Assembly (NCBI GenBank): GCA_021810605.1
Contig: JAJZIL010000002.1
Location: 1,109-65,108 of the forward strand
Direction of reading: 5' to 3'
From: a bacterium
GTDB taxonomy: Bacteria; Patescibacteriota; Dojkabacteria; JAKAPS01; JAJZLI01
Length of the DNA: 64,000 nt
The translations under genes were made by a program, and so were the position numbers. The notes beneath the pieces are model-generated. The model was not told the DNA's origin, ran no database searches, and saw nothing but the letters and a program-made list of their open reading frames with translations. Shown piece by piece: positions 8,161 to 47,251 of the stretch (position 1 is its first letter; the number at the start of each line of letters is the position of its first letter).

Positions 8161-8573
8161 TATATAAAAGTTATAATAGTTTATATGATATTAATAAAAA
8201 AAGATTTACTTATATTACTTCAAATGTTTTTCAGTATCTTAACTTAGATAAAAAACAATTTTCATTATTTATTGTTGGTAAATATAAAATAAAATCATTA
8301 AATTGCTATTATAATAATATAAATTCAGTGACAGATGTTTTGGCGTTAGAATATAAGGATCCTTTTTATATAGGGGATATATACATATGTCCAGATATAA
8401 TTTATAAAAATTCCAAAAAATTTAACTGTTCTTTTTTTGAAGAACTAGATAGAATTTTTATACATGGATTATTACATATTTTAGGATATGATCATATCAA
8501 CCCCTTAAATACATCAGAAAAAATGTTTATAATTCAAGAAGATATATTGAAGAAACTAAAATGGAATATTTAA
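8157..8573 (+). CDS. ybeY: rRNA maturation endoribonuclease YbeY
   Basis: HGLLHILGYDH zinc-binding motif. Confidence 0.8.
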   Translation: MIYKSYNSLYDINKKRFTYITSNVFQYLNLDKKQFSLFIVGKYKIKSLNCYYNNINSVTDVLALEYKDPFYIGDIYICPDIIYKNSKKFNCSFFEELDRIFIHGLLHILGYDHINPLNTSEKMFIIQEDILKKLKWNI

Positions 8574-20078: not shown

Positions 20079-20123
20079 ATATTTCATAAATTATTAATCT
20101 TTAAATACTAGAATATAATTATT

Positions 20124-20532
20124 GGAGATGGTGGGAATCGAACCCACATCCATGAAGATAAATATATATATAGGGTTACAAGTTTATCAGTTTTAATTTT
20201 GAATTTATCATTTTACTACTGATAAAATAATGATAATTCTAATATTAGTCCAGTTTTGTTTTCATGTTAAAATCTAATATTAAAAATTTTAACACTAATC
20301 TTGTTTTGTTTAAGCAAGATAAAATTTACAAGAATTATTTTATCTCACTCTAAGTTTATTATGCTAAACTTAGATTGTATTGTGGAGTAAAAGTTGATTT
20401 TAAATTTCCAACAAATTCTGACACTTTACTTTTTATATTATTTACATTTATTATTTTAATAATTTTTAAAAGATTATTAAACTTTACTTGCCATATATAC
20501 ATCGATTTTTCTTGTCAAAACCGGTCATCCCC
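20124..20532 (-). ncRNA. ssrA: tmRNA (SsrA), about 409 nt
   Basis: Minus-strand 5' end GGGGAUGACCGGUUUUGACAAG matches the conserved tmRNA start (GGGG-UGA..GGUUUCGAC). The 3' end GUGGGUUCGAUUCCCACCAUCUCCA forms a canonical T-arm plus an acceptor strand complementary to GGGGAUG, and CCA is not encoded. There is an internal tag-like ORF ...YNLSLA-UAA-UAA at about 20356-20409. Confidence 0.85.
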
Positions 20533-32817: not shown

Positions 32818-32901
32818 GCCGGGATGGCGGAACTGGTAGACGCACAGGACTCAAAATCCTGCGAGAACTTTCTCATGAGGGTCCGAGTCCCTCTCTCGGT
32901 A
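32818..32901 (+). tRNA. tRNA-Leu (anticodon CAA), type II with a long variable arm
   Basis: Acceptor GCCGGGA/TCTCGGT (two G-U pairs), D-arm GGCGGAACTGGTAGACGC nearly identical to E. coli tRNA-Leu, anticodon loop CUCAAAA, a long variable arm, and T-arm GAGGG-TCCGAGT-CCCTC. The C at T-loop position 55 is unusual. CCA is not encoded. Confidence 0.8.
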
Positions 32902-36679: not shown

Positions 36680-36979
36680 ATGTCTGATAAGTTTATTAAG
36701 ATTAATGAGAGCTTCAAATGTGTATATTGTGGGATTTTTAATGAAAGAGATACACATGGATCATGTAGAAATCATTGTACAGAATGCCTATACTCACTTC
36801 ATGTAGATATATATCCAGGAGATAGAAGAGAAAAGTGTAATGGTATTATGAAACCAATACAAATAGAAAGTATTGGAGGTAAAAATATAATATATCATAA
36901 ATGTCTAGTTTGTAATAAAATAAAGAAAAATAAGTCATCTATAGATGATAACTTATTAAATTTTTATGAAGCCTATTAA
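36680..36979 (+). CDS. RNHCP-domain Cys-rich small protein
   Basis: CVYCG...GSCRNHCTEC...CNG...CLVCN, 10 Cys in 99 aa, resembling the RNHCP domain family. Confidence 0.45.
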   Translation: MSDKFIKINESFKCVYCGIFNERDTHGSCRNHCTECLYSLHVDIYPGDRREKCNGIMKPIQIESIGGKNIIYHKCLVCNKIKKNKSSIDDNLLNFYEAY

Positions 36980-38129
36980 AAGAAGAAGAAAAACTAGTAG
37001 CAAAGTTTTAATTTTATTAATTATAATAATTGTAATATTAGGATATTTCTTTATATCTAGTATAATATTATTTAATAAAATTAGTTTTAAAAATGACCCA
37101 GGATATCAAGGTTCATATGTTAGTTGGAATAATGTTAATACAATTAATATACTTGTTTTATATAGTAATATTAATGAGAATAGCTTAAATACTTATAATG
37201 CTATATTATCAATCGATCCTAGAGGTACTGTGTCAATTTTAAATATTCCTTCAGATATTAAAATTGTTACTCCATCTGGAACATACCAAAGATTAAATAC
37301 TATTTATCCTGTTGGAAATTTAAATTCTCCGCAAATAGGAGTTAATCTAACATTAAAATATTTAAGATATAATCTTGCTATTCCTATTGAAGGATATATT
37401 TCTTTTAATTCTAGTACTATAAATAATTTAAAAACTGGAATATCAATAAATTCTTTGTATAATTTTAAATATAAAGGTGTATCAATAAATAAAGGTTATA
37501 ATAATCTTTCTCTTCAAGATATTAAGGATATAATGGGAATAAAGAATGATACTCAATTAACTTTATATATTAAAAATACTATTTTTAATAGTATACTGTC
37601 AAAATTTATTAATACTTTCTCTATAGTTAATTTTAGTAGTAGTGCAAAATCTTTAAGAGATATCTTTTATTCAAATATAGGAGAAGGTTCTTTAAATAAT
37701 ATCTTTTATAATATATATAAAGTGGGAGAGAGTAATTTTAAATTATTATATCTTCCAAATAAAGGTAATGATATAAATTTACAGAATACAGACTATTATA
37801 TTAGTACCAATTTCTTAGATTATTCTTTCTCAAATAGTGGAGTATTAATACAAATTTTGGATGCTTCTAATAGTAATAGTGCAGTGTATCAATTTAGTAG
37901 ATATATTAATAATTTAGGAGGTAATATTTCATCTATAGGTATATATAATGGGAATACACAAAAAGATATAATATATGTTAGTAATAAAAATAAATATTCA
38001 TATGATGTATCAGTATTAACACAAATTTTAGGATCAAAAAATGTTAAAATAATAAATAGTACTCCTAATTTTTTTTATACTGGGTCAATAATTGTTGTTT
38101 TAGGGACAGATGATACATATATATATTAA
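36966..38129 (+). CDS. LytR-CpsA-Psr (LCP) family cell-envelope phosphotransferase
   Basis: N-terminal TM anchor, then NILVLYSN...AILSIDPRGTVSILNIPSDIKIV...LNTIYPVG, matching the LCP core motifs. Confidence 0.6.
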   Translation: MKPIKRRRKTSSKVLILLIIIIVILGYFFISSIILFNKISFKNDPGYQGSYVSWNNVNTINILVLYSNINENSLNTYNAILSIDPRGTVSILNIPSDIKIVTPSGTYQRLNTIYPVGNLNSPQIGVNLTLKYLRYNLAIPIEGYISFNSSTINNLKTGISINSLYNFKYKGVSINKGYNNLSLQDIKDIMGIKNDTQLTLYIKNTIFNSILSKFINTFSIVNFSSSAKSLRDIFYSNIGEGSLNNIFYNIYKVGESNFKLLYLPNKGNDINLQNTDYYISTNFLDYSFSNSGVLIQILDASNSNSAVYQFSRYINNLGGNISSIGIYNGNTQKDIIYVSNKNKYSYDVSVLTQILGSKNVKIINSTPNFFYTGSIIVVLGTDDTYIY

Positions 38130-38140
38130 TTAATCTAATT

Positions 38141-38920
38141 ATGTCAGGACATTCAAAGTGGTCAACAATTAAGAGAGCAAAAGAAGTTAATGATTTAAAG
38201 AAAGCTAGGTATTTTACAAAAGCTTTGAATCAAATAGTAGTTTCTGTAAAAGATGGAGGAGATAGTATAGAAAGTAATTTTATGCTTAAATTAGCAATAG
38301 ATAATGCAAAGTCTTTAAATATCCCAATAAAATCAATTGAAAATGCTATTAAAAAAGGTAAAGGAGAAGATAAAGAGTACTCAAACTTTGAAAATACTTT
38401 TTATGAAGCTTATGGTCCCGAAAATGTATCAATATTAATAGAGTGTTTTACAGATAATAAAAATAGACTTATTTCTGAGATTAGAACAGTTTTAGATAGA
38501 AATGGTGGGAAACTTCTTAATAATGGTACAATAGGATGGCAGTTCGAATTACAAGTTCTTTTTACTTTAAAAATTGAAACTGAGATAGATAGACAAAATA
38601 GAGTTAAATATGGGCATAATAATAATAAATTACATAAAATTACTGATATAGATAAATTTGAAAATAATCTTATAGATGTTGATGGTATTATTGATTACTA
38701 TATAGAGGAAAATGAATTATATATATATATACTTCCAGAAAAAATGCAAGTAATGAGAAGATTTTTAGAAGAGCAAGAAATTATTGTAGATAATATAGAG
38801 AAAACTTATATTTCAAAAGTGAAAGTAGAGATATCTGAAGAAAATTTTCAAAAATTAGATCACCTTGTAGACATGCTAAGTAGTATAGAAAATGTAGAGA
38901 ATGTTTATATTAATATATAA
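38141..38920 (+). CDS. yebC: YebC/PmpR-family transcriptional regulator
   Basis: MSGHSKWSTIKRAK N-terminus, upstream of ruvC as in many bacteria. Confidence 0.85.
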   Translation: MSGHSKWSTIKRAKEVNDLKKARYFTKALNQIVVSVKDGGDSIESNFMLKLAIDNAKSLNIPIKSIENAIKKGKGEDKEYSNFENTFYEAYGPENVSILIECFTDNKNRLISEIRTVLDRNGGKLLNNGTIGWQFELQVLFTLKIETEIDRQNRVKYGHNNNKLHKITDIDKFENNLIDVDGIIDYYIEENELYIYILPEKMQVMRRFLEEQEIIVDNIEKTYISKVKVEISEENFQKLDHLVDMLSSIENVENVYINI

Positions 38921-38925
38921 TTATT

Positions 38926-39411
38926 ATGTCTAGAAAAATATTAGGAATTGATCCTGGATTTGCTATTTTGGGGTGGGGTTTTATTGAAGGAGAAGGAATC
39001 TCTAAAGTAGATAAAGTAGAGTGGGGTGCTATTACAACTAGTCCAAAAGATACAATAGATAAAAGGTTATTAGTTATATATAATGAGCTTTCAAATATAA
39101 TTAAAATGTATGATCCAGATGAGATATCTTTAGAAAAATTATTTTTTAATACAAATTCTAAAACGGTTATATCAGTAGGGCAATCTCAAGGAATAGCATT
39201 AGTTCTAGCAGCATTAAATGAGAAACCAATTTATTTGTATACTCCACTTCAGGTAAAAAATTCTTTGACAGGCTATGGTGTATCAAATAAAAAACAAATA
39301 CAAAGTATGTTAAAATTAGTATTGAAGTTAGATGAAATTCCAAAACCTGATGATGCAGCTGATGGAATTGCATTAGCTTTATGTCATTTGCAAACAAATA
39401 AATATATATGA
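38926..39411 (+). CDS. ruvC: Holliday junction resolvase RuvC
   Basis: ILGIDPGFAILGWG N-terminal RNase H-fold motif. Confidence 0.85.
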   Translation: MSRKILGIDPGFAILGWGFIEGEGISKVDKVEWGAITTSPKDTIDKRLLVIYNELSNIIKMYDPDEISLEKLFFNTNSKTVISVGQSQGIALVLAALNEKPIYLYTPLQVKNSLTGYGVSNKKQIQSMLKLVLKLDEIPKPDDAADGIALALCHLQTNKYI

Positions 39412-39986
39412 TAGGTTATATAAAAGGTTTTATACAATATATTGGAAAAGGTTATATCGTTATTAATGTTAATGATATTGGTTATAAAGTAGAAATTGGT
39501 GAAAGAACTATTGATTCTTTAGTGCAAAGTAGTAATATTGAACTATATATTTATCCTGAATCTTCAGAAAGAAGTTCTAGATTGTTTGGATTTCTAGATC
39601 AAAAAAGTCTAAATTTATTTGAATTATTACTTACTGTTAATGGTATTGGTCCTAAGGGTGCATTAAATATATTATCAAATTCTAATGCAGATGAATTATC
39701 AATGGCAATAGATAAAGGTGATACTAATTTCCTTGCATCTATACCATCGTTAGGGAAAAAAATGGCAGAGAGAATGATATTAGATTTGAAAGGAAAGATT
39801 GATTTAACTCAGAGTGGGAGTGTTTGGTCTTCTGTAAGAAGTGCTTTAATAAATCTAAATTATTCAAATTCAGAGGTAGATTCTATATATGATATTTTTC
39901 AAAATAAATATAGTGATATAAAAGATACTTCAGAGGCAATAAAATTAGCTATATTACTTTTAAATGATAGTAAAAAATATGAATAA
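39408..39986 (+). CDS. ruvA: Holliday junction branch-migration protein RuvA
   Basis: MIGYIKG N-terminus, HhH region (VNGIGPKGAL), and a position between ruvC and ruvB. Confidence 0.8.
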   Translation: MIGYIKGFIQYIGKGYIVINVNDIGYKVEIGERTIDSLVQSSNIELYIYPESSERSSRLFGFLDQKSLNLFELLLTVNGIGPKGALNILSNSNADELSMAIDKGDTNFLASIPSLGKKMAERMILDLKGKIDLTQSGSVWSSVRSALINLNYSNSEVDSIYDIFQNKYSDIKDTSEAIKLAILLLNDSKKYE

Positions 39987-40962
39987 AGATAACGATTTAT
40001 TTACAAATATCAGACCGCAAACATTTAATGATGTTATTGGTAGAAAAAAAGAAAAAAAGAACTTATCTATACTTATAGATGCAGCAAAATCTAGAGGTGA
40101 AGTTTTAGAGCATATTTTATTTTATGGTCCTCCTGGACTTGGAAAAACAACTCTTTCTTCAGTTATTGCAAGTGAAATGGGTGTAAATATAAAAATTACA
40201 TCTGGTCCTGCATTAACTAGAGCTGCTGATATAGCTTCAATAGTAACTAGATTGTCAAGAGGAGATATATTATTTATTGATGAAATACATAGGTTAAACA
40301 AAGTTATAGAAGAAAAATTATATTCTGCAATGGAAGATTTTGCATTAGATGTAGTAATAGGCACTGGTCCATCTGCGGATATTGTTAGAATAGATTTGAA
40401 TCCATTTACGATTATAGGTGCAACTACTAGAATAGGATTGATATCTGCACCCTTAAGGGAACGATTTGGGGCTATTGTGAGGTTAGATTATTATACACAA
40501 GAAGATATTGAAGAAATTATTCTTAGGAGTGCAAAAATTCTTAATGTAAATATAGATAATGAAGCTATTAAAGAAATAGCATCTAGAAGTAGAGGTACAG
40601 CAAGGATAGCGAATAGGTTATTAAAAAGAGTTAGAGATTATGCACAAGTCTATAATATTAACCATATAAAAAAACAGGATGCTATTAAAGCATTTGATGC
40701 TCAAAGTATAGATAAAATGGGTTTAGATGAATTAGATTTAAAAATATTAGAAGTTATAGTGATAAATTTTAATGGAGGACCTGTAGGTGTAAGTACTATT
40801 GCAGACTCTGTATCTGAAGAAATAGATACAATAGAAGATGTATGTGAACCATTTTTGATCCAATCTGGACTTATCAAAAAAACATCTAGGGGTCGGGTAG
40901 CTACAAAATTTGCTTTTGATTATTTAAAAATTCCTTATAATGAAGAACTTTCTCTTATCTAA
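39964..40962 (+). CDS. ruvB: Holliday junction helicase RuvB
   Basis: Walker A GPPGLGKTT, Walker B IDEIHRL, and an AAA+ fold. Confidence 0.9.
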   Translation: MIVKNMNKDNDLFTNIRPQTFNDVIGRKKEKKNLSILIDAAKSRGEVLEHILFYGPPGLGKTTLSSVIASEMGVNIKITSGPALTRAADIASIVTRLSRGDILFIDEIHRLNKVIEEKLYSAMEDFALDVVIGTGPSADIVRIDLNPFTIIGATTRIGLISAPLRERFGAIVRLDYYTQEDIEEIILRSAKILNVNIDNEAIKEIASRSRGTARIANRLLKRVRDYAQVYNINHIKKQDAIKAFDAQSIDKMGLDELDLKILEVIVINFNGGPVGVSTIADSVSEEIDTIEDVCEPFLIQSGLIKKTSRGRVATKFAFDYLKIPYNEELSLI

Positions 40963-41740
40963 AAATATAAGATCTATAAGTCTTATTAGTTCTTTAATTA
41001 TAGTGATTATTTCATTTATAAGTATAATTTTCTTTGAATCAAGAGATATTATTATTGAAGTATTATTAATCTTTATCACTTATATTATATCATTGTTAAT
41101 ATCTGATTTTAATTTTAAAATAAAGGAATTATTTAATCTTTTTATTATTCCAAGTCTAATAATTTTTTTATTTTATTCTTTTATATTAAGATATGATTTA
41201 TTACATCAAAGTATATATTTGGTAATATTTATCGGGTTAATTTACTTTATTTTTTTATATGCTTCATTTATACATATAAGTATTATTAATGTCTCTAAAT
41301 TTGAATCAGTTCCATTAGCAAGTTTTTCCTATACTATAAATTATATAATATTAACTGTAATCTCATATTTCTCTTTCTTGTTTGGTTTTCTGCAAAATAA
41401 TATTTTTTTATTAATTCTTTATATTGTAATATTTTCGATTATTATAATATCTCAAAATTTAACATCATTAGAGTATGATTCTACAGAAATCAATTTATAT
41501 AGTGCTATTGGAGCTTTAATGTTTTTTAATTTAACTATATTCTTTATTTTCTATCCGATATATATATTCATAGCAGCTCTTTCATTAGCTTTGGTTATGT
41601 ATATTTATAATGGTATATTACTTCATAATAGGACTAATAGGATTCCATATTTTAATTATATTGAATATTTAATATTTTCTATAATTATAGTCTTATCTCT
41701 TATATATATTCCTAGTTGGGGCATATCTGGTCATCTATAA
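40940..41740 (+). CDS. hypothetical polytopic membrane protein
   Basis: 7-8 hydrophobic helices and no motif. Confidence 0.4.
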   Translation: MKNFLLSKNIRSISLISSLIIVIISFISIIFFESRDIIIEVLLIFITYIISLLISDFNFKIKELFNLFIIPSLIIFLFYSFILRYDLLHQSIYLVIFIGLIYFIFLYASFIHISIINVSKFESVPLASFSYTINYIILTVISYFSFLFGFLQNNIFLLILYIVIFSIIIISQNLTSLEYDSTEINLYSAIGALMFFNLTIFFIFYPIYIFIAALSLALVMYIYNGILLHNRTNRIPYFNYIEYLIFSIIIVLSLIYIPSWGISGHL

Positions 41741-42175
41741 TCAATTTTTATTGAAATTGTAGGGGAGTAAGTATCTTAATTATTCTTTTTCCATATTTTC
41801 TTTTTATAATTAAATTATTAATTATAGTAATTAGATAAATTATATATATTATTATAAATATAATTTATAGAGAAAGTTTATAAATCTGCTAAATATATTA
41901 CTATAACAGTCAAAGTAGGGGGTAGAGTCCTATAGTATAGAACCTATAGTGATTAGTTGAATAGGGCAATACTACCTTATAGTATTTTTAATTAATGTGG
42001 ATAAGTGAGTCGGCAAGATATACCTAAATATGATAATTAGATTATAAGTAAGTGATAATATTTTAGAAATATGAATATAATTATTAAAATAATAAAGTAT
42101 AATGTCTCTCTCATATAAGTAATGATAGAGAGGTACTCTTCTTCCATCATAAAAGCTATTAGAAAGATAAAAATA

Positions 42176-42222
42176 TAACTGAGTATAATCACCCTTATAC
42201 TCAGTTATTAACTTCTGTTTTT
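42176..42222 (+). terminator. 10-bp perfect hairpin plus T-tract inside the long non-coding region
   Basis: ACTGAGTATA-atcaccct-TATACTCAGT followed by ...TTCTGTTTTTT. Confidence 0.25.
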
Positions 42223-42831
42223 TAAAAAGGTAGGTCCCCTTCTATTCTACTCTATTTTAGACGTTTATCTTTCTTAAGGTATAAATTATTATGATATTGC
42301 AAAAATAGAAATTTTATTTATATATAATATATTATATATTTTTTTATTATTCTCTATTTATAGAATTTATATTTTATGAGAATTTTTTGTGAATAAATAT
42401 TTGTTTAGTATTATTTTTACTTTTTATCATAAATAAACCCAATTATTTTTATAATAAATACATATAGAGAAAGTATTACTGTTTGTGGAATAAATGTTTT
42501 AGTATCTGGAAGTATAGCAACTTATCCCCTATTGAGGATGCTGTGGAGAAGAAGTAGTCCAAGAAAAAGTTATTATAAGTAGATTTTATAGTTAAATTTT
42601 ACATATTTGATACTCCTACATATGCTAGAATTGCAGGTTTTTTAAAATTAGAAGTCATAAAAATGCTGAATACTAAAATATTAGGTAAAAATAAATCTAA
42701 TAAGTTCATAACTAACATTGAGAATATAGCATTATTTAGTAGTAACTTAAATCTAATTTTCTTTATTTTTCATATTATATATAATATATTATATACATTC
42801 TATATTTTTATAATTATTTTTTATATAAATT

Positions 42832-43044
42832 ATGGCTAATTCAAAAATAAAATTAACAAAAAATGGTCCTTTAAAAATTTCAGGTGATTTTGAACTTGAA
42901 GATGAACAAGAGAAAGTAATACAGATTTCTGGTGATAATTATCTTTGTAGATGTGGAAATTCATCAGATAAACCTTTTTGTGATGGAACTCATGCTGTAT
43001 TACATTTTGATTCATCTAAAGGAATACAAGAATATTCTGAATGA
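42832..43044 (+). CDS. CDGSH-type iron-sulfur domain protein (mitoNEET-like)
   Basis: CRCGNSSDKPFCDGTH is the canonical C-x-C-x2-S-x3-P-x-C-D-G-(S/T)-H motif. Confidence 0.75.
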   Translation: MANSKIKLTKNGPLKISGDFELEDEQEKVIQISGDNYLCRCGNSSDKPFCDGTHAVLHFDSSKGIQEYSE

Positions 43045-43718
43045 AAATTATATTGAAAGAAAAGAAAAAATTATTTGATGATATTTATGAATTTAATTTT
43101 AAGTCAGATGATATTGTAAATTGGATTCCTGGACAATTTTTACAATATTATATTGATTGTAAGGATGATGGTAGAGGTACAGATAGATTTTTTACTATTG
43201 CATCTTCCCCATTAGAGGGTATTATAAAATTAACAACAAGATTTTCTTCTAAAGGGAGTTCATTTAAGAAAGTACTAAAAGGTATAAAAATTGGAACTTC
43301 TTTAAATGTAGAAGGTCCTTGGGGTAAATTTACACTTATAGATAGTTATATAACAAAAAAGATTTTTTTTATTTCAGGAGGTGTAGGAATTACTCCTTTT
43401 AGAAGTATTATTCAAGATTTATATTTAAAAAAAGAAAAAATTGATATTACCCTACTCTATTATAATAAAACATCAGAATTTATATATAAAAATGAATTTG
43501 ATAAAAATAATGCAATAAAAAAATCATATATAATAGGTTCGGTCGATAAAATATCTTTATTAGAGAATATTAATGTATTAGATAATCAAAATTCTCTCTA
43601 TTACATTTCAGGTCCTGAAGGGTTTGTTAAGACTACAGAGAGTATATTCTTGAATGATTTAAATATTTATAAAGAAAATTTAAAATCAGATTTTTTCCCA
43701 GGTTACTCTAAAATATAA
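43041..43718 (+). CDS. ferredoxin-NADP reductase-like FAD/NAD(P)-binding oxidoreductase
   Basis: FAD motif RFFTIASSP (RxYS-type) and NAD(P) motif ISGGVGITPF. It overlaps the CDGSH gene by 4 nt. Confidence 0.65.
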   Translation: MKIILKEKKKLFDDIYEFNFKSDDIVNWIPGQFLQYYIDCKDDGRGTDRFFTIASSPLEGIIKLTTRFSSKGSSFKKVLKGIKIGTSLNVEGPWGKFTLIDSYITKKIFFISGGVGITPFRSIIQDLYLKKEKIDITLLYYNKTSEFIYKNEFDKNNAIKKSYIIGSVDKISLLENINVLDNQNSLYYISGPEGFVKTTESIFLNDLNIYKENLKSDFFPGYSKI

Positions 43719-43752
43719 AATATTATTGAAAGTAGTAATTTTTTGTTATAGT

Positions 43753-44733
43753 ATGATATATATGGAATTCAAACTATTAGATCATAAAAAAGATTTTCTA
43801 TTAAATCTTTTGAATAATAACTATAGTAATGAAACTATATATAACTATACAAGAGATCTTTCTCTTTTTGAACTATTTTTATCTTCTAGAGGTATTGGAT
43901 TCAGTGATATAGATAAAAATGATATTGTTAATTTTAAGGATTTTTTACGTACTGGTGAATATATAGGTATACTTAAGGAAGATAAAGAGAATATTCATAA
44001 TTTTAGTAAAGATTCTACAGGGAAACTTTCTCCAAGGTCTATTAATAGAGTATTATCTTCCTTAAGAACATATATTAGGTATCTAATTGATTTTGAATTT
44101 GATTTTCCAGTTGCTCCTGAATCTATAAAATTAATAAAGACAGAAAAAAAATCTTCTCAAGTTGCAGAATTTCAAGAACTTATAAAATTAATAGAATTTC
44201 CTTCAGTTTATGAAAAGAATGAATTTGTAAAATTTAGAAATAGAGCAATATTAGAAACATTATTCTCTACAGGGATGAGGATTTCAGAATTAGTATCACT
44301 TAATAGAGATCAGGTTAATGATGATGGACGAATATATGTATTAGGAAAAGGTAAAAAACAGAGATTTGTATATCTTACAGAAAGAGCAAAGAAGAATATA
44401 TTCAATTATTTAGAATTAAGAGATGATGATAATAATGCATTATTTACACCAATTAGAGGTGGTAGAAATGGTAGTGTAAATAATAGAATCTCAACAAATT
44501 ATATTCAGGATAAAATTTCATTTTATAGAAAAAAATTAGGAATAATAGTACCTACAAGTGCTCATAGTTTAAGGCATGGGTTTGCTACTTATCTTGCAGA
44601 AGAAGGTGCTAATGCAGTAGCAATACAAATATTATTAGGACATGAGTCATTACAGACTACTAATAAATATATGCATGCTTCTGATAAATATGCAGAAGAG
44701 ACTCACAAAAAGTTTCATCCATTAAAAAATTAA
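43753..44733 (+). CDS. tyrosine site-specific recombinase (XerC/XerD-like)
   Basis: C-terminal catalytic block AHSLRHGFATYLAEEGANAVAIQILLGHESLQTTNKYMH (R..H.R.Y). Start is uncertain: TTG at 43726, ATG at 43753 or 43762. Confidence 0.8.
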   Translation: MIYMEFKLLDHKKDFLLNLLNNNYSNETIYNYTRDLSLFELFLSSRGIGFSDIDKNDIVNFKDFLRTGEYIGILKEDKENIHNFSKDSTGKLSPRSINRVLSSLRTYIRYLIDFEFDFPVAPESIKLIKTEKKSSQVAEFQELIKLIEFPSVYEKNEFVKFRNRAILETLFSTGMRISELVSLNRDQVNDDGRIYVLGKGKKQRFVYLTERAKKNIFNYLELRDDDNNALFTPIRGGRNGSVNNRISTNYIQDKISFYRKKLGIIVPTSAHSLRHGFATYLAEEGANAVAIQILLGHESLQTTNKYMHASDKYAEETHKKFHPLKN

Positions 44734-44742
44734 ATATTTTCT

Positions 44743-45147
44743 TTAATTACAAGTGTCTAGATTACTCCCATTGTAATTATATTCACCTGATCTGATAGAT
44801 TCATATTGATTAGCATTTCCTGGATAGAAAGTACATAATGTTCCTCCAGACCCACCATTTATATCATTGTTATATATAGAATATTGGAATATAGATGGAA
44901 CGGAAGTTAGGGATTGAGTATACAAGGTTACTTGTCTAGATGTATTTCGGTAACTAGATTGAGAATAGACTCCATATTGTTCTACTATATTTGTAGGACC
45001 TACACCAGCATAAACTACAGAGTCTCTATATAAAAAAATTCCGACAAACACAAAAAATATAGAAAAAACTATAACTTTGAGTAATATTTTCCTATTTTTT
45101 AAAAACTTCATTATATCTAATATATACAATATAATATAAAAATTCAA
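44743..45147 (-). CDS. small secreted protein sharing its promoter and signal peptide with the 636-aa protein at 60867
   Basis: N-terminal 40 aa identical to the ORF at 60867. A likely SPase I site follows VYA, and the mature part of about 95 aa has a C-terminal Cys pair. The true start may be the MKFLKN Met at 45111. Confidence 0.5.
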   Translation of the reverse strand: MNFYIILYILDIMKFLKNRKILLKVIVFSIFFVFVGIFLYRDSVVYAGVGPTNIVEQYGVYSQSSYRNTSRQVTLYTQSLTSVPSIFQYSIYNNDINGGSGGTLCTFYPGNANQYESIRSGEYNYNGSNLDTCN

Positions 45148-45158
45148 TACTAATTAAT
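45027..45158. repeat. left copy of a 132-bp inverted repeat (131/132 identical) with 60856-60987
   Basis: Direct comparison of the reverse complement of 45027-45158 with 60856-60987 shows one mismatch. The repeat covers about 50 bp upstream, the ATG and about 40 codons. Confidence 0.9.
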
Positions 45159-45310
45159 ATATAGACAGAATTCTTATGATTAGTAGTTGTTTATAAGTTT
45201 AGTAAAAATCATATAATTTTGACTTTCAATATATTTATAATATAATAGATAATACCTTGTGAGTAAAGAGGTCTTTTACTAGAAATACTAGAAAATTTTT
45301 AATTTTTACA

Positions 45311-47251
45311 ATGAAGCAGTTATTAAATAAAATTTTTAATCCTCCATTAGATATTCTTGTTTTTAAAATATATATATATTGGTTTATATTAGGAATATCA
45401 ATTTTTATATTTTTTTCTAATTACTTATCAAGTCTATTTTCTGTATTAGTATTACTAATCTTCTCATCAGGATTTTTTATACTTAGATATTTAAGAGGTG
45501 ATATAAGATCTCCATTTAAGATAGCATACTTGTTTCCTATTTTTATGATATTTGCAATAATTTCTATTTTTTTTAGTGTTGATAAATATTCTTCAATACT
45601 TAGTATAATTACATATATCTCTTTATTTATAATATTTATGCTTTCTTTTGATATTTTGTCTGAACCTAAAGTATTGAAATGGTTTTTATCTTGGTTACTT
45701 TTTATAGGGGTAATATTTTCAATTGTAGGTATAATATATTATGTAGGGGGTTACAGTCATTATTTAGTAGGTACATTAAATAGTTCTTTTATATCTGCTG
45801 CTTTTTTACTATTGCTTATTCCAGTATCTTTCTATTTTTATATTTTTTCAAATAAAGTTTCTAGTAGAGTTATAAATCTCTTCACTCTTTCTATACTTAT
45901 TGTATCTTTATTTATAACTTACTCATATTTTTCATATATAGCATTATTTGTAGAAATAGTATTAATTCTATTTATATTAAGAAATTATTGGGTCAAAGAT
46001 ATAGTTAAAATCTTTTTTTTAATAGTTGTGTCAATAGTTTTATTTGTAGCAGTTAGTAAATATAATAAACCATTTGATAAAATATATAATACTTCTTCAA
46101 ATATAACTGATGTATTGAATATCTCATCCTCTCAAAGGATTAGACTTTATGAGAAAGAATGGAATATTTTTATTGCTAAACCTTTTTTTGGATATGGAAT
46201 TGGTACGAATAGTGATGTGTTTAAAAAATTCGAATATTCACCTTGGTTATATCTTTCTGGAGGATATAATGTATTTATCAATTTATTTTTAGATGTAGGT
46301 GTATTTGGTGGATTAGCTTTCTTAGGATTTTTTGGAATAATATTATATTATGGTTTTTATAGTATATTTTCTAATCCAAAATATCTTAAATTAAAAAATA
46401 ATCCTCCTAAAAATTTTATCTTTATTCCAATTTTTGTATCAATATTTGGTGTAATATTGTACTCTTTTTTTAATAATGATTTATCATATATTTCAATACT
46501 ACTACCCTTATTTATTTTTGTTGGGATCGTATTTAATTATTTTAATTTAGATAAGAAATTTTTTAAAACTTTCGCTAATATTGTATTTGTATTTTCAATA
46601 GTATTCATAGTTATATCTATAGATTTATATCTTTCTGGAGTATTTTTCAATAATGGTATAAAGGTTATAGATGGGAGTTTATCTTTAAATAAATCTCAAG
46701 TTAATTCTGCTTTAAATTATTTTGATAATTCTGCACTATTATTTCCATTTAATTTTAATACATACAATGAGATTGGAATTAGTTTTGAATATTTAAAAGA
46801 ATATAATAAATCTATTGATAATTTTAAAAAATCTCTAAGTATTAATAGTTATAATCCAAATGCTAATTATCAATTAGGAAGAGCATATTATAATAATAAT
46901 GAGTATAAAAAATCATTAGTATATTTCAAGAAAGCATATAATTTTAATAAATTATATAATCCATTATATCTTTTATCTTTAGGAGAATATTACTCTTTTA
47001 GAAAACAAAATTCTAAATCTGAAAAAATATATAAAGAAGCAATAAAATTGTTTCCACTAAAAAATCTAATACATGAAGATTATCCTCAAATATTTTATAA
47101 TAACAATGATAATTCTAACCTATCAAATATATATACAAATCTATATTCAATGACTAAAAATATTAAATATTATAATTTATATGAAGAGCTATCTCCTCTA
47201 CATATACAAACAAAAATTCCAATAAAGAAATCTGTGCCTAAGAAAAAATAA
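45311..47251 (+). CDS. O-antigen ligase (Wzy_C) family membrane protein with C-terminal TPR repeats
   Basis: About 10 TM helices, a large loop with R...KPFFGYGIG...GGYNVFINLFLDVGVFGGLAF (Wzy_C-like), and C-terminal TPR-like repeats (NANYQLGRAYYNNNEYKKSLVYFKKA). Confidence 0.6.
   Translation: MKQLLNKIFNPPLDILVFKIYIYWFILGISIFIFFSNYLSSLFSVLVLLIFSSGFFILRYLRGDIRSPFKIAYLFPIFMIFAIISIFFSVDKYSSILSIITYISLFIIFMLSFDILSEPKVLKWFLSWLLFIGVIFSIVGIIYYVGGYSHYLVGTLNSSFISAAFLLLLIPVSFYFYIFSNKVSSRVINLFTLSILIVSLFITYSYFSYIALFVEIVLILFILRNYWVKDIVKIFFLIVVSIVLFVAVSKYNKPFDKIYNTSSNITDVLNISSSQRIRLYEKEWNIFIAKPFFGYGIGTNSDVFKKFEYSPWLYLSGGYNVFINLFLDVGVFGGLAFLGFFGIILYYGFYSIFSNPKYLKLKNNPPKNFIFIPIFVSIFGVILYSFFNNDLSYISILLPLFIFVGIVFNYFNLDKKFFKTFANIVFVFSIVFIVISIDLYLSGVFFNNGIKVIDGSLSLNKSQVNSALNYFDNSALLFPFNFNTYNEIGISFEYLKEYNKSIDNFKKSLSINSYNPNANYQLGRAYYNNNEYKKSLVYFKKAYNFNKLYNPLYLLSLGEYYSFRKQNSKSEKIYKEAIKLFPLKNLIHEDYPQIFYNNNDNSNLSNIYTNLYSMTKNIKYYNLYEELSPLHIQTKIPIKKSVPKKK

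Follow-up and report, generated by a model that had tools for sequence, protein, structure and literature searches.

A candidate dif-like site for a single Xer-type recombinase in the longest intergenic gap of a 64-kb Dojkabacteria window

The site of an Xer recombinase is defined as two 11-bp inverted arms around a 6-bp centre (PMC2958812), and here we describe a perfect palindrome that contains this layout in a bacterium of the Dojkabacteria. The palindrome lies in the intergenic gap at positions 41741-42831 of a 64,000-nucleotide stretch of contig JAJZIL010000002.1, the whole of which we refer to as the window. Judged from its sequence, the conserved core of this gap (41912-42266) is probably a complex of DNA sites, the centre of which would be the dif-like cognate site of the single Xer recombinase encoded 1.5 kb downstream. 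The Patescibacteria, or Candidate Phyla Radiation (CPR), represent a very large and almost uncultivated share of bacterial diversity whose chromosome biology is essentially unstudied, and literature searches for a dif site described in CPR/Patescibacteria, or for the motif itself, returned nothing relevant.

In organisation, the closest described system is XerS/difSL of Streptococci and Lactococci. The difSL site lies immediately upstream of xerS, the two forming a single module for which autoregulation has been proposed (Le Bourgeois et al. 2007, PMC1914069); it is a 31-bp sequence whose arms are unequal and imperfect and whose centre spans 11 bp (PMC5357621). The system described here has in common with it a single recombinase, a site and gene that form one conserved module, in many lineages with the gene directly behind the site, and a site positioned at or after the promoter of the gene, suggesting autoregulation. 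However, the site here is 28 bp long with perfect 11-bp arms and a 6-bp centre, and in the window it is separated from xer by two genes. In site sequence and symmetry the closest system is, by comparison, archaeal XerA/dif (Cortez et al. 2010, PMC2958812), which likewise has a single recombinase and a nearly perfect 11-6-11 palindrome (18 of 28 positions identical); for dif of the Thermococcales, too, conserved flanking sequences have been reported. The host here is a bacterium, however, its protein scores below the XerA cut-off, and linkage to xer is the rule, whereas Thermococcales dif is not adjacent to xerA. A single Xer acting on an inverted-repeat site with a short centre is also known as XerH/difH from Helicobacter and Campylobacter, although the difH arms (AGTTATGAAAA and AAAAGTTTGA) are imperfect and unrelated in sequence (PMC5357621). 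Finally, XerCD/dif of E. coli and most bacteria shares the 28-bp 11-6-11 site, the ATAA/TTAT inner ends and the XerC/XerD-like fold. In that system there are two paralogous recombinases, the arms are asymmetric and dif is unlinked to the xer genes, whereas here the arms are identical and one xer gene was seen in the sequence examined. The locus would represent an Xer system with one recombinase and a 28-bp site of perfect symmetry, which ancestrally overlapped the xer promoter.

The palindrome and its link to an Xer-type recombinase

The palindrome, its dif-like core and the recombinase gene are located in the window as follows.

42175-42208, no strand assigned: perfect palindrome ATAACTGAGTATAA-TCACCC-TTATACTCAGTTAT, with a 14-bp stem (42175-42188 with 42195-42208) and a 6-nt loop.
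42178-42205: inner 28 bp, the 11-6-11 dif-like core (left arm 42178-42188, centre 42189-42194, right arm 42195-42205).
43726-44733, plus strand: Xer-family tyrosine recombinase of 326-335 amino acids; public gene calls begin at 43753.

The two arms of the 28-bp core, ACTGAGTATAA-TCACCC-TTATACTCAGT, are perfectly complementary and end on the inside in ATAA and TTAT. At 18 of 28 positions, including TATAA-TC..CC-TTATA, the core is identical to the experimentally used dif site of P. abyssi, ATTGGATATAATCGGCCTTATATCTAAA (PMC2958812). The palindrome is present once in the window and once in each of ten related loci (8-21 kb). In the window and in the related loci of 17-21 kb, every other match has mismatches at 7 or more of the 22 arm positions, which is the level of shuffled sequence. 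The core is also identical at 15 of 28 positions to E. coli dif. No match with five or fewer arm mismatches occurred in 1.22 Mb of control ruvB loci from other phyla, and 79 ruvB loci of other phyla (L011-L089, including Saccharibacteria, Doudnabacteria and Shapirobacteria) contained neither a homologue of xer nor a dif-like palindrome. The initial annotation of the gap had listed a dif or core site for the adjacent tyrosine recombinase among three candidate explanations. This is the best supported of the three, but the site is the element that had been presumed to be a terminator and not the TATAGT repeats.

The recombinase is the last gene of a packed trio, following a CDGSH protein gene (42832-43044) and an FNR-like reductase gene (43041-43718), and contains the Pfam domains Phage_integrase and Phage_int_SAM_1. 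It matches the NCBIfam models of XerC (1.5e-55), XerD (7.7e-54) and XerA (2e-47) over their full length, yet scores under every NCBIfam equivalog cut-off (XerS, XerA, XerC and XerD); for example, it reaches 162 bits against a cut-off of 220 for the XerA model NF040815 and 101 bits against 267 for the XerS model. The best matches in PDB are XerA of P. abyssi (4a8e) and XerD of E. coli (1a0p), and in the alignment to the latter the protein has matching residues at all six positions of the catalytic R-K-H-R-H-Y set. Since the XerC/XerD match covers the whole protein and no additional arm-binding domain would fit, the arm-type sites that had also been suggested for this gap are unlikely. A further PDB match (E 1.5e-21, residues 44-291) was to chain 14 of 9i5v, a 401-residue chain labelled 'Ribosome-associated translation inhibitor RaiA'; either this label looks wrong or the chain is a fusion.

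Several public assemblies carry the same species, with gaps that are 99-100% identical. More distant relatives, one of them labelled 'Patescibacteria group bacterium', were collected by a ruvB protein search and have RuvB identities of 89% (L010), 78% (L091/L092), 76% (L093/L094), 67% (L095) and 65% (L097), and all share the order membrane protein, gap, CDGSH, FNR, recombinase. The gap itself differs in length (867 nt in L010, 742 in L091 and 536 in L093). In alignments of six lineages (the window, L010, L091, L093, L095 and L097; RuvB 65-100% identical), the only conserved parts are AGTAGGGG, two to three copies of C(C/T)TATAGT, TGTGGATAA, the palindrome with its loop, and a TACTCT block 26-43 nt to the right, and the sequence between these blocks varies. 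The palindrome is identical or symmetrically changed in all of them; 32 nt of it, loop included, are identical at a RuvB identity of only 76%, and the outer arm pair shifts symmetrically from C-G to T-G to T-A in L091, L097 and L095. Both arms are also changed symmetrically in L246 (ACCGAG/CTCGGT), while an A/C asymmetry in the arms is tolerated in L244 and L247. The sequence of the inner 8 bp of each arm is constant from 26 to 58% GC. In L095 and L097 a unit of approximately 330 bp lies in the middle of an island, with insertions on both sides.

To extend the comparison beyond close relatives, metagenome and viral contigs were scanned for TGAGTATAA-N6-TTATACTCA with exact 9-bp arms, which returned more than 145 loci. 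Most of these are unrelated hairpins, coding sequence or small viral contigs, and loci were used only if they had an xer or ruvB neighbour or extended arms. The palindrome stands beside homologues of the window's recombinase in about 30 loci of 26-58% GC; by local tblastn, the homologue adjoining the palindrome in scan loci of 31-58% GC is mostly 41-59% identical. In many loci no more than about 100 nt separate the palindrome from the start of xer, with distances of 7-100 nt in, among others, L104, L112, L126, L217, L244 and L247. The centre varies by lineage (TCACCC, TATCCC, TCAACC, TAACCC, TCTCCC, TTACCC, TCATCC, TAATTC and TATCTC), and its orientation relative to xer is constant in the xer-adjacent loci examined, except in L120 and L164. 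The scan also returned three sequences of 22-24% GC (L162:322-533, L208:72-283 and L172) built of 188-nt tandem units, each with TGAGTATAA-ACAATT-TTATACTCA. Because they contain no xer homologue, they look like a different repeat family that shares the 9-bp arms.

Since the scan fixed the arms, an independent test was made with loci picked by the Xer protein alone. Six homologues were taken from a protein search that returned more than 4000, some of them labelled Dojkabacteria, Azambacteria or Patescibacteria, and the DNA was disregarded in the choice. Four of the six loci have the site, between 7 nt and 9.5 kb upstream of xer, compared with none in the 1.22 Mb of controls.

L244, 55% GC: ACTGAGTATAA-TATCCC-TTACACTCAGT, 16 nt upstream of xer.
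L247, Azambacteria, 54% GC: ATTGAGTATAA-TATCCC-TTACACTCAGT, 7 nt upstream of xer.
L245, 33% GC: ACTGAGTATAA-TATCCC-TTATACTCAGT, in the order ruvCAB, membrane protein, palindrome, one gene, xer.
L246, 36% GC: ACCGAGTATAA-TATCCC-TTATACTCGGT, both arms changed symmetrically, separated from xer by a 9-kb gene.
L248, Dehalococcoidia, 64% GC: no site within 10 kb.
L249, Dojkabacteria, 37% GC: no site within 10 kb.

Most xer-adjacent loci have a promoter of the form TTGACA-17-TATAAT immediately ahead of the palindrome, its TTGACA 26-41 bp away, which places the site at the start of the xer transcript in those loci. In the window, a -10-like hexamer, TATAAC (42174-42179, plus strand), abuts the left edge of the palindrome and may serve the same role. 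The left arm together with the first central base also spells TATAAT (42184-42189), and a promoter scan matched TAGAAA-18-TATAAT at 42160-42189. TATAAY is found at the position of the hexamer in L093, L095, L097, L120, L169, L180, L218 and L247. This overlap of site and promoter suggests a simple autoregulatory xer circuit.

From these patterns we infer that Xer binds the palindrome and recombines it, thereby resolving chromosome dimers, and that it regulates its own gene, with the neighbouring motifs in an accessory role. Two Xer monomers would bind the two identical 11-bp arms, which implies an Xer homodimer per site, and two sites on a chromosome dimer would synapse and exchange strands across the 6-bp centre, so that the dimer is resolved. 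In the ancestral arrangement the site would overlap or directly follow the promoter driving xer, and Xer bound there would therefore also repress its own gene; in the window lineage, site and xer would since have been separated by the insertion of a variable AT-rich spacer together with the CDGSH and FNR-like genes. If this is correct, Patescibacteria rely on a single Xer recombinase whose site most resembles that of archaea in sequence, and the dif site would be a marker of the replication terminus for closing and checking Patescibacteria genomes. The 28-bp substrate and the 326-335 amino acid protein form a defined pair for biochemical tests.

In many loci the palindrome is preceded by a sigma-70-like promoter and followed by the start codon of xer, a position that would equally suit an operator or a hairpin in the 5' untranslated region that controls xer, or the CDGSH-FNR-xer genes, and is bound by Xer or another dimeric regulator without recombining, and two-fold symmetry is just as typical of operators. 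Nevertheless, the 11-6-11 layout and the ATAA/TTAT inner ends match dif sites specifically, and the neighbouring gene encodes a recombinase, not a regulator. Moreover, the site is kept despite 1.5-9.5 kb inserted before xer (the window, L245, L246, L095 and L097), it occurs on a phage contig that has no xer in 14 kb, and it is the sequence of the stem, not merely its pairing, that is constant from 26 to 58% GC. We consider a non-recombining control element unlikely for these reasons.

The orientation of genes around the palindrome fits a dif site but does not prove one. In five lineages with different neighbours, genes converge on the locus: 36 of those left of the palindrome are encoded on the plus strand, compared with 2 on the minus strand, and in the 10 kb that follow xer the minus strand carries 31 genes and the plus strand 13. 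Other observations limit the assignment as a dif site or weigh against it. In the window, ten pilus genes at 52-63 kb are back on the plus strand, and GC and AT skews, calculated over the whole sequence and per gene at third codon positions (GC3/AT3), are dominated by gene content and fit neither a switch at 42 kb nor its absence. The palindrome and xer are not adjacent there, being 1.5 kb and two genes apart. Of the loci picked by Xer protein, two, L248 (Dehalococcoidia) and L249 (Dojkabacteria), lack the site over a distance of 10 kb, and the pattern of conserved arms around a variable centre is partly built into the scan sample, because exact 9-bp arms were required; the sample free of this bias comprises only ten loci. 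No second copy of the palindrome (six or fewer mismatches in 22) was found bounding the L095 and L097 islands or in the window. Finally, a simple dif model gives no account of the motif cluster on the left. As the skews fit neither model, the assignment of a terminus or origin from composition was dropped. The polarity of GNAGGG words, which resemble FtsK-orienting polar sequences (KOPS), was likewise uninformative because their counts track gene orientation.

Motifs flanking the palindrome and readings as mobile or replication DNA

The core of the gap contains further conserved blocks on both sides of the putative dif site.

41912-41922, plus strand: G-rich block AAAGTAGGGGG, the left edge of the conserved core.
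41929-41937, 41943-41951 and 41975-41984, plus strand: three direct copies of CCTATAGT, C(C/T)TATAGT.
41996-42004, no strand assigned: TGTGGATAA, an exact match to the reverse complement of the DnaA-box consensus TTATCCACA.
42023-42173, no strand assigned: AT-rich spacer between cluster and palindrome, roughly kept in length and poorly conserved in sequence, which holds an imperfect stem.
42235-42266, no strand assigned: right-hand block TCCCCTTCTATTCTACTCTATTTTAGACGTTT, conserved with L010, with a TACTCT core 26-43 bp to the right of the palindrome.

The AGTAGGGG word is invariant in the window, L010, L091 and L093, and GTAGGG lies 176-282 bp to the left of the palindrome in L120, L128, L125, L245 and L246. 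Three copies of YTATAGTR were reported for this region by the initial annotation and do occur there, at 41930, 41944 and 41977 of the plus strand. Over the whole window the motif is not enriched (24 found, 25 expected), but three copies within 60 nt were obtained in none of 100 Markov-1 simulations (maximum two), and the cluster is thus beyond chance. Two to three CCTATAGT copies are found 184 to 257 bp upstream of the palindrome in the window, L128/L125, L107/L191 and L155 groups. The repeats are confined to lineages in which ruvB, the membrane protein gene and the element have stayed together, and are missing from loci with xer directly behind the palindrome. Repeats and TGTGGATAA come in a different order in the window group than in groups of higher GC.

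The TGTGGATAA sequence is invariant in six close lineages and shares 8 of 11 positions with the left palindrome arm; the gap contains one perfect DnaA box and two with one mismatch. It lies 31 to 41 bp upstream of the palindrome in L120, L185, L194, L245 and L246, 172 to 234 bp upstream in the window, L128/L125 and L107/L191 groups, and 57 bp upstream in the phage contig L222. On the right, TACT[CA][TC] is found at +26 to +43 in the window, L091, L093, L095, L097 and L246. The distance between motif cluster and palindrome is 170-280 bp in every lineage. The imperfect stem reported at about 42103-42133 exists (42104-42133), yet relatives do not conserve the part in which it falls.

Short words that do not change, spacers that do, and a distance that is roughly constant suggest DNA that is bound by protein. 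The left cluster (GTAGGGG, CCTATAGT and the DnaA-box sequence) most likely represents accessory or regulatory protein-binding sites that would work with the palindrome. A comparable layout is known from the plasmid sites cer and psi, which have one-sided accessory sequences beside an Xer core (PMC5357621). Like these sites (core plus approximately 180-250 bp of accessory sequence), the locus has a one-sided conserved region of similar length in which the spacing is kept and the intervening sequence is not. Here, however, the site is chromosomal, PepA, ArgR and ArcA and their sites are not evident, and the likeness is one of layout only. By analogy, and as a speculative extension to which we give a low probability, the 350-bp unit might be a chromosomal resolution site of cer/psi type, in which a symmetric Xer core is served by a one-sided accessory region of approximately 250 bp (DnaA box, CCTATAGT and G-rich block). 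This region might bind DnaA or another architectural protein and give resolution selectivity or cell-cycle timing to a single-Xer system in ultrasmall Patescibacteria; it could replace or supplement control by FtsK, and phages might copy core and box to exploit the host Xer.

A copy of the site is present on a phage contig, L222, which encodes a primase, a large terminase and a portal protein. The intergenic region at 8363-8449 contains TTAACTGAGTATAA-TGACCA-TTATACTCAGTTAT, with the same 14-bp arms around a different centre and with ATGTGGATAAG 57 bp upstream of the palindrome; no recombinase was found in the 14 kb of this contig that were examined. The arrangement recalls mobile elements that borrow the host Xer. 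Sites of the phage type also occur in L100, L118, L182, L220, L221, L229 and L241, and variants of it in L101, L117 and L243. The linked cluster of DnaA box and repeats, and the copies carried by phages, hint that Xer may be both regulated and exploited.

The combination of a DnaA box, CCTATAGT repeats as iterons, an AT-rich stretch and a palindrome could also be read as a replication site, that is, an origin or a DnaA-controlled element. The perfect DnaA-box consensus is kept in almost all lineages and in the phage copy, and direct repeats and the AT-rich spacer adjoin it. An origin is nevertheless unlikely, because the DnaA box is perfect in a single instance, gene orientation is convergent on the locus and not divergent, and neither dnaA nor dnaN is among the annotated genes of the window. 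Many xer-adjacent palindromes, moreover, are without box and repeats, and we regard a replication site as highly improbable.

We see equally little prospect for an attachment site, or the decayed remnant, of a mobile element whose integrase would be the downstream recombinase. This junction is a hot spot for insertion, where L095 and L097 have acquired 7-9 kb of genes for toxin-antitoxin systems and defence, and the gap is variable and without homologue in its right part. Against this, the recombinase and the site are syntenic with housekeeping genes (ruvCAB and gyrAB) in lineages whose RuvB proteins are 65-100% identical, the recombinase is Xer-like and not phage-integrase-like, and only one copy of the site was found in the loci examined, so there is no pair of attL and attR. 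In L095 (7687-16870) and L097 (11784-19410), the DNA between the membrane-protein and CDGSH genes is divided by the 330-bp unit into two islands, one on each side. The genes of these islands are of toxin-antitoxin/defence type (AAA_14/DUF4143 ATPases, AbiEii, PIN and ParE), and precomputed Pfam annotation revealed no integrase among the called genes. Because a second site copy is absent, entry of these islands mediated by Xer is unsupported; a reading as integrative mobile elements exploiting Xer (IMEX), or as otherwise att-flanked, was rejected since no second dif-like copy, full or partial, was found.

RNA and terminator readings

In the initial annotation the gap was also proposed to encode a structured non-coding RNA of about 300 nt. 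Such an RNA would extend over 300-350 nt, from about 41912 to about 42266, and in it AGUAGGGG would pair at long range with the pyrimidine-rich 3' block, the palindrome being an internal or terminator hairpin. In its favour, the minimum-free-energy fold of the single sequence pairs the 5' G-rich block with the 3' block, the blocks remain one unit despite islands on both sides in L095 and L097, and a TATAAC-like -10 hexamer precedes AAGTAGGGG in some lineages. The searches, however, gave this RNA no support. Rfam gave no match at gathering score in the gap or at the homologous elements of 22 related loci, and matches in the gap at E<=10 were at chance level only (STnc240, MicF, mir-454 and MS2). 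The core is no more stable in folding than shuffled sequence, with z-scores of -1.33 for the plus strand and -1.67 for the minus strand, and RNAalifold, applied to six lineages, a number that limits its power, recovers the palindrome as the sole helix, with one compensatory pair (C-G via U-G to U-A).

The pattern of change also speaks against an RNA, with blocks invariant in sequence, spacers variable, and a block order that differs between clades; many lineages have the palindrome without the other blocks. Where its symmetry is broken, the change in L091 and L097 gives a U-G pair on plus-strand RNA, whereas that in L244 and L247 gives an A-C mismatch on the same strand. The G-U-compatible changes thus point to opposite strands in the two sets, and no single RNA strand is favoured. 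We conclude that a structured RNA is very unlikely. A dif site, in comparison, would explain why a conserved, 'non-coding RNA-like' block keeps being missed by RNA searches.

Long-range helices (AGUAGGGG with CCCCUUCU or CUUCUAC, and GAGAGUG with CACUCUC) can be drawn by hand in each lineage but are not recovered by RNAalifold, and they were rejected; they need G-U pairs, shift between lineages or become direct repeats in L128. RNase P, signal recognition particle (SRP) RNA, 6S and other known RNAs were discarded as candidates, there being no Rfam signal for them in the gap (E<=10) or in homologues of higher GC.

The palindrome had been described as a perfect 10-bp hairpin followed by a T-tract, forming an intrinsic terminator on the plus strand. 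The hairpin is present, and with its 14-bp stem is longer than described, but the plus-strand terminator did not survive the analysis. A terminator scan called the palindrome on the minus strand only, and the T-run on the plus strand starts about 10 nt past the stem. The T-run of the minus-strand call is itself missing in most relatives, including L091, L128 and L112, and the terminator reading is therefore not conserved.

A different block, CCCCTGAAAAGCCGTTTTTGGGGCATTACAG.GCCTCGTGCCTGGATAGGC, is conserved approximately 150-200 nt upstream of the palindrome in L104, L106, L111, L137, L159, L160 and L163. It forms a small hairpin with apparent compensatory changes (GCCTGGATAGGC versus GCTTGTGTGAGC) and has no Rfam match at gathering score. 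A terminator or a small RNA not described before are possible readings of this block.

Composition and gene neighbourhood of the gap

With 1091 nt, the gap is the longest in the window, as had been noted from the tight packing of the genes: the runner-up is 456 nt, the median 6 nt, and 43 of the 57 gaps are shorter than 50 nt. No open reading frame in it exceeds 58 aa on either strand. The window has 26% GC and uses the standard code. A recoded genetic code that would hide a gene in the gap was rejected, because stop codons of all three kinds occur in every frame, and long open reading frames elsewhere fit table 11. The description of the core as richer in GC holds relative to its flanks (25-32% at 41850-42300, compared with 9-15% at 41750-41900 and 42250-42450), the core itself being close to the window mean. 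Likewise, the designation of 42290-42830 as extremely AT-rich applies to part of this interval but not to 42450-42650, where GC is back up to 23-31%.

The remainder of the gap, upstream of the CDGSH gene, differs from the core in its lack of conservation.

42270-42831, no strand assigned: variable spacer, mostly very AT-rich.

No homologue of this segment was found by blastn or tblastx against related loci, and the distance from palindrome to CDGSH gene ranges from about 216 nt (L093) through about 336 (L091) and about 426 (L010) to about 625 nt in the window; in L095 and L097, island DNA extends it to about 3.7-4.8 kb. The segment is probably promoter and spacer DNA of the CDGSH-FNR-xer operon, or perhaps an insertion remnant. 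A decayed integrated element, as initially suggested for the gap, is therefore conceivable only for this right part, which is variable and without detectable homologue, and does not apply to the rest. A pseudogene at 42374-42760 on the minus strand was considered and rejected, since blastn and tblastx against related loci gave low-complexity matches only. A patch of about 31% GC at 42450-42600 aligns in part, and only to L010 (ACTTATCCCCT...GGAGAAGAAGTAG); it has no open reading frame and no homologue elsewhere.

The only Rfam matches at gathering score in the window are a transfer-messenger RNA (tmRNA) at 20120-20532 on the minus strand (52.6 bits, cut-off 47) and a tRNA at 32818-32901 on the plus strand. 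Upstream of the gap are a LytR-like gene, yebC, ruvC, ruvA, ruvB and a gene for a 266 amino acid membrane protein; downstream are the genes for the CDGSH protein, the FNR-like reductase and the tyrosine recombinase, followed by an EpsG-like fragment, a Wzy/TPR protein, gyrA, gyrB, holB and type IV pilus genes. The membrane protein near ruvB has a weak DUF5656 match in L095. The arrangement of ruvC-ruvA-ruvB, membrane protein, Xer site and xer forms a conserved neighbourhood (window 36966-47251, L001-L097 and L245), and through this linkage the genes for Holliday-junction resolution adjoin the putative dimer-resolution module in this clade.

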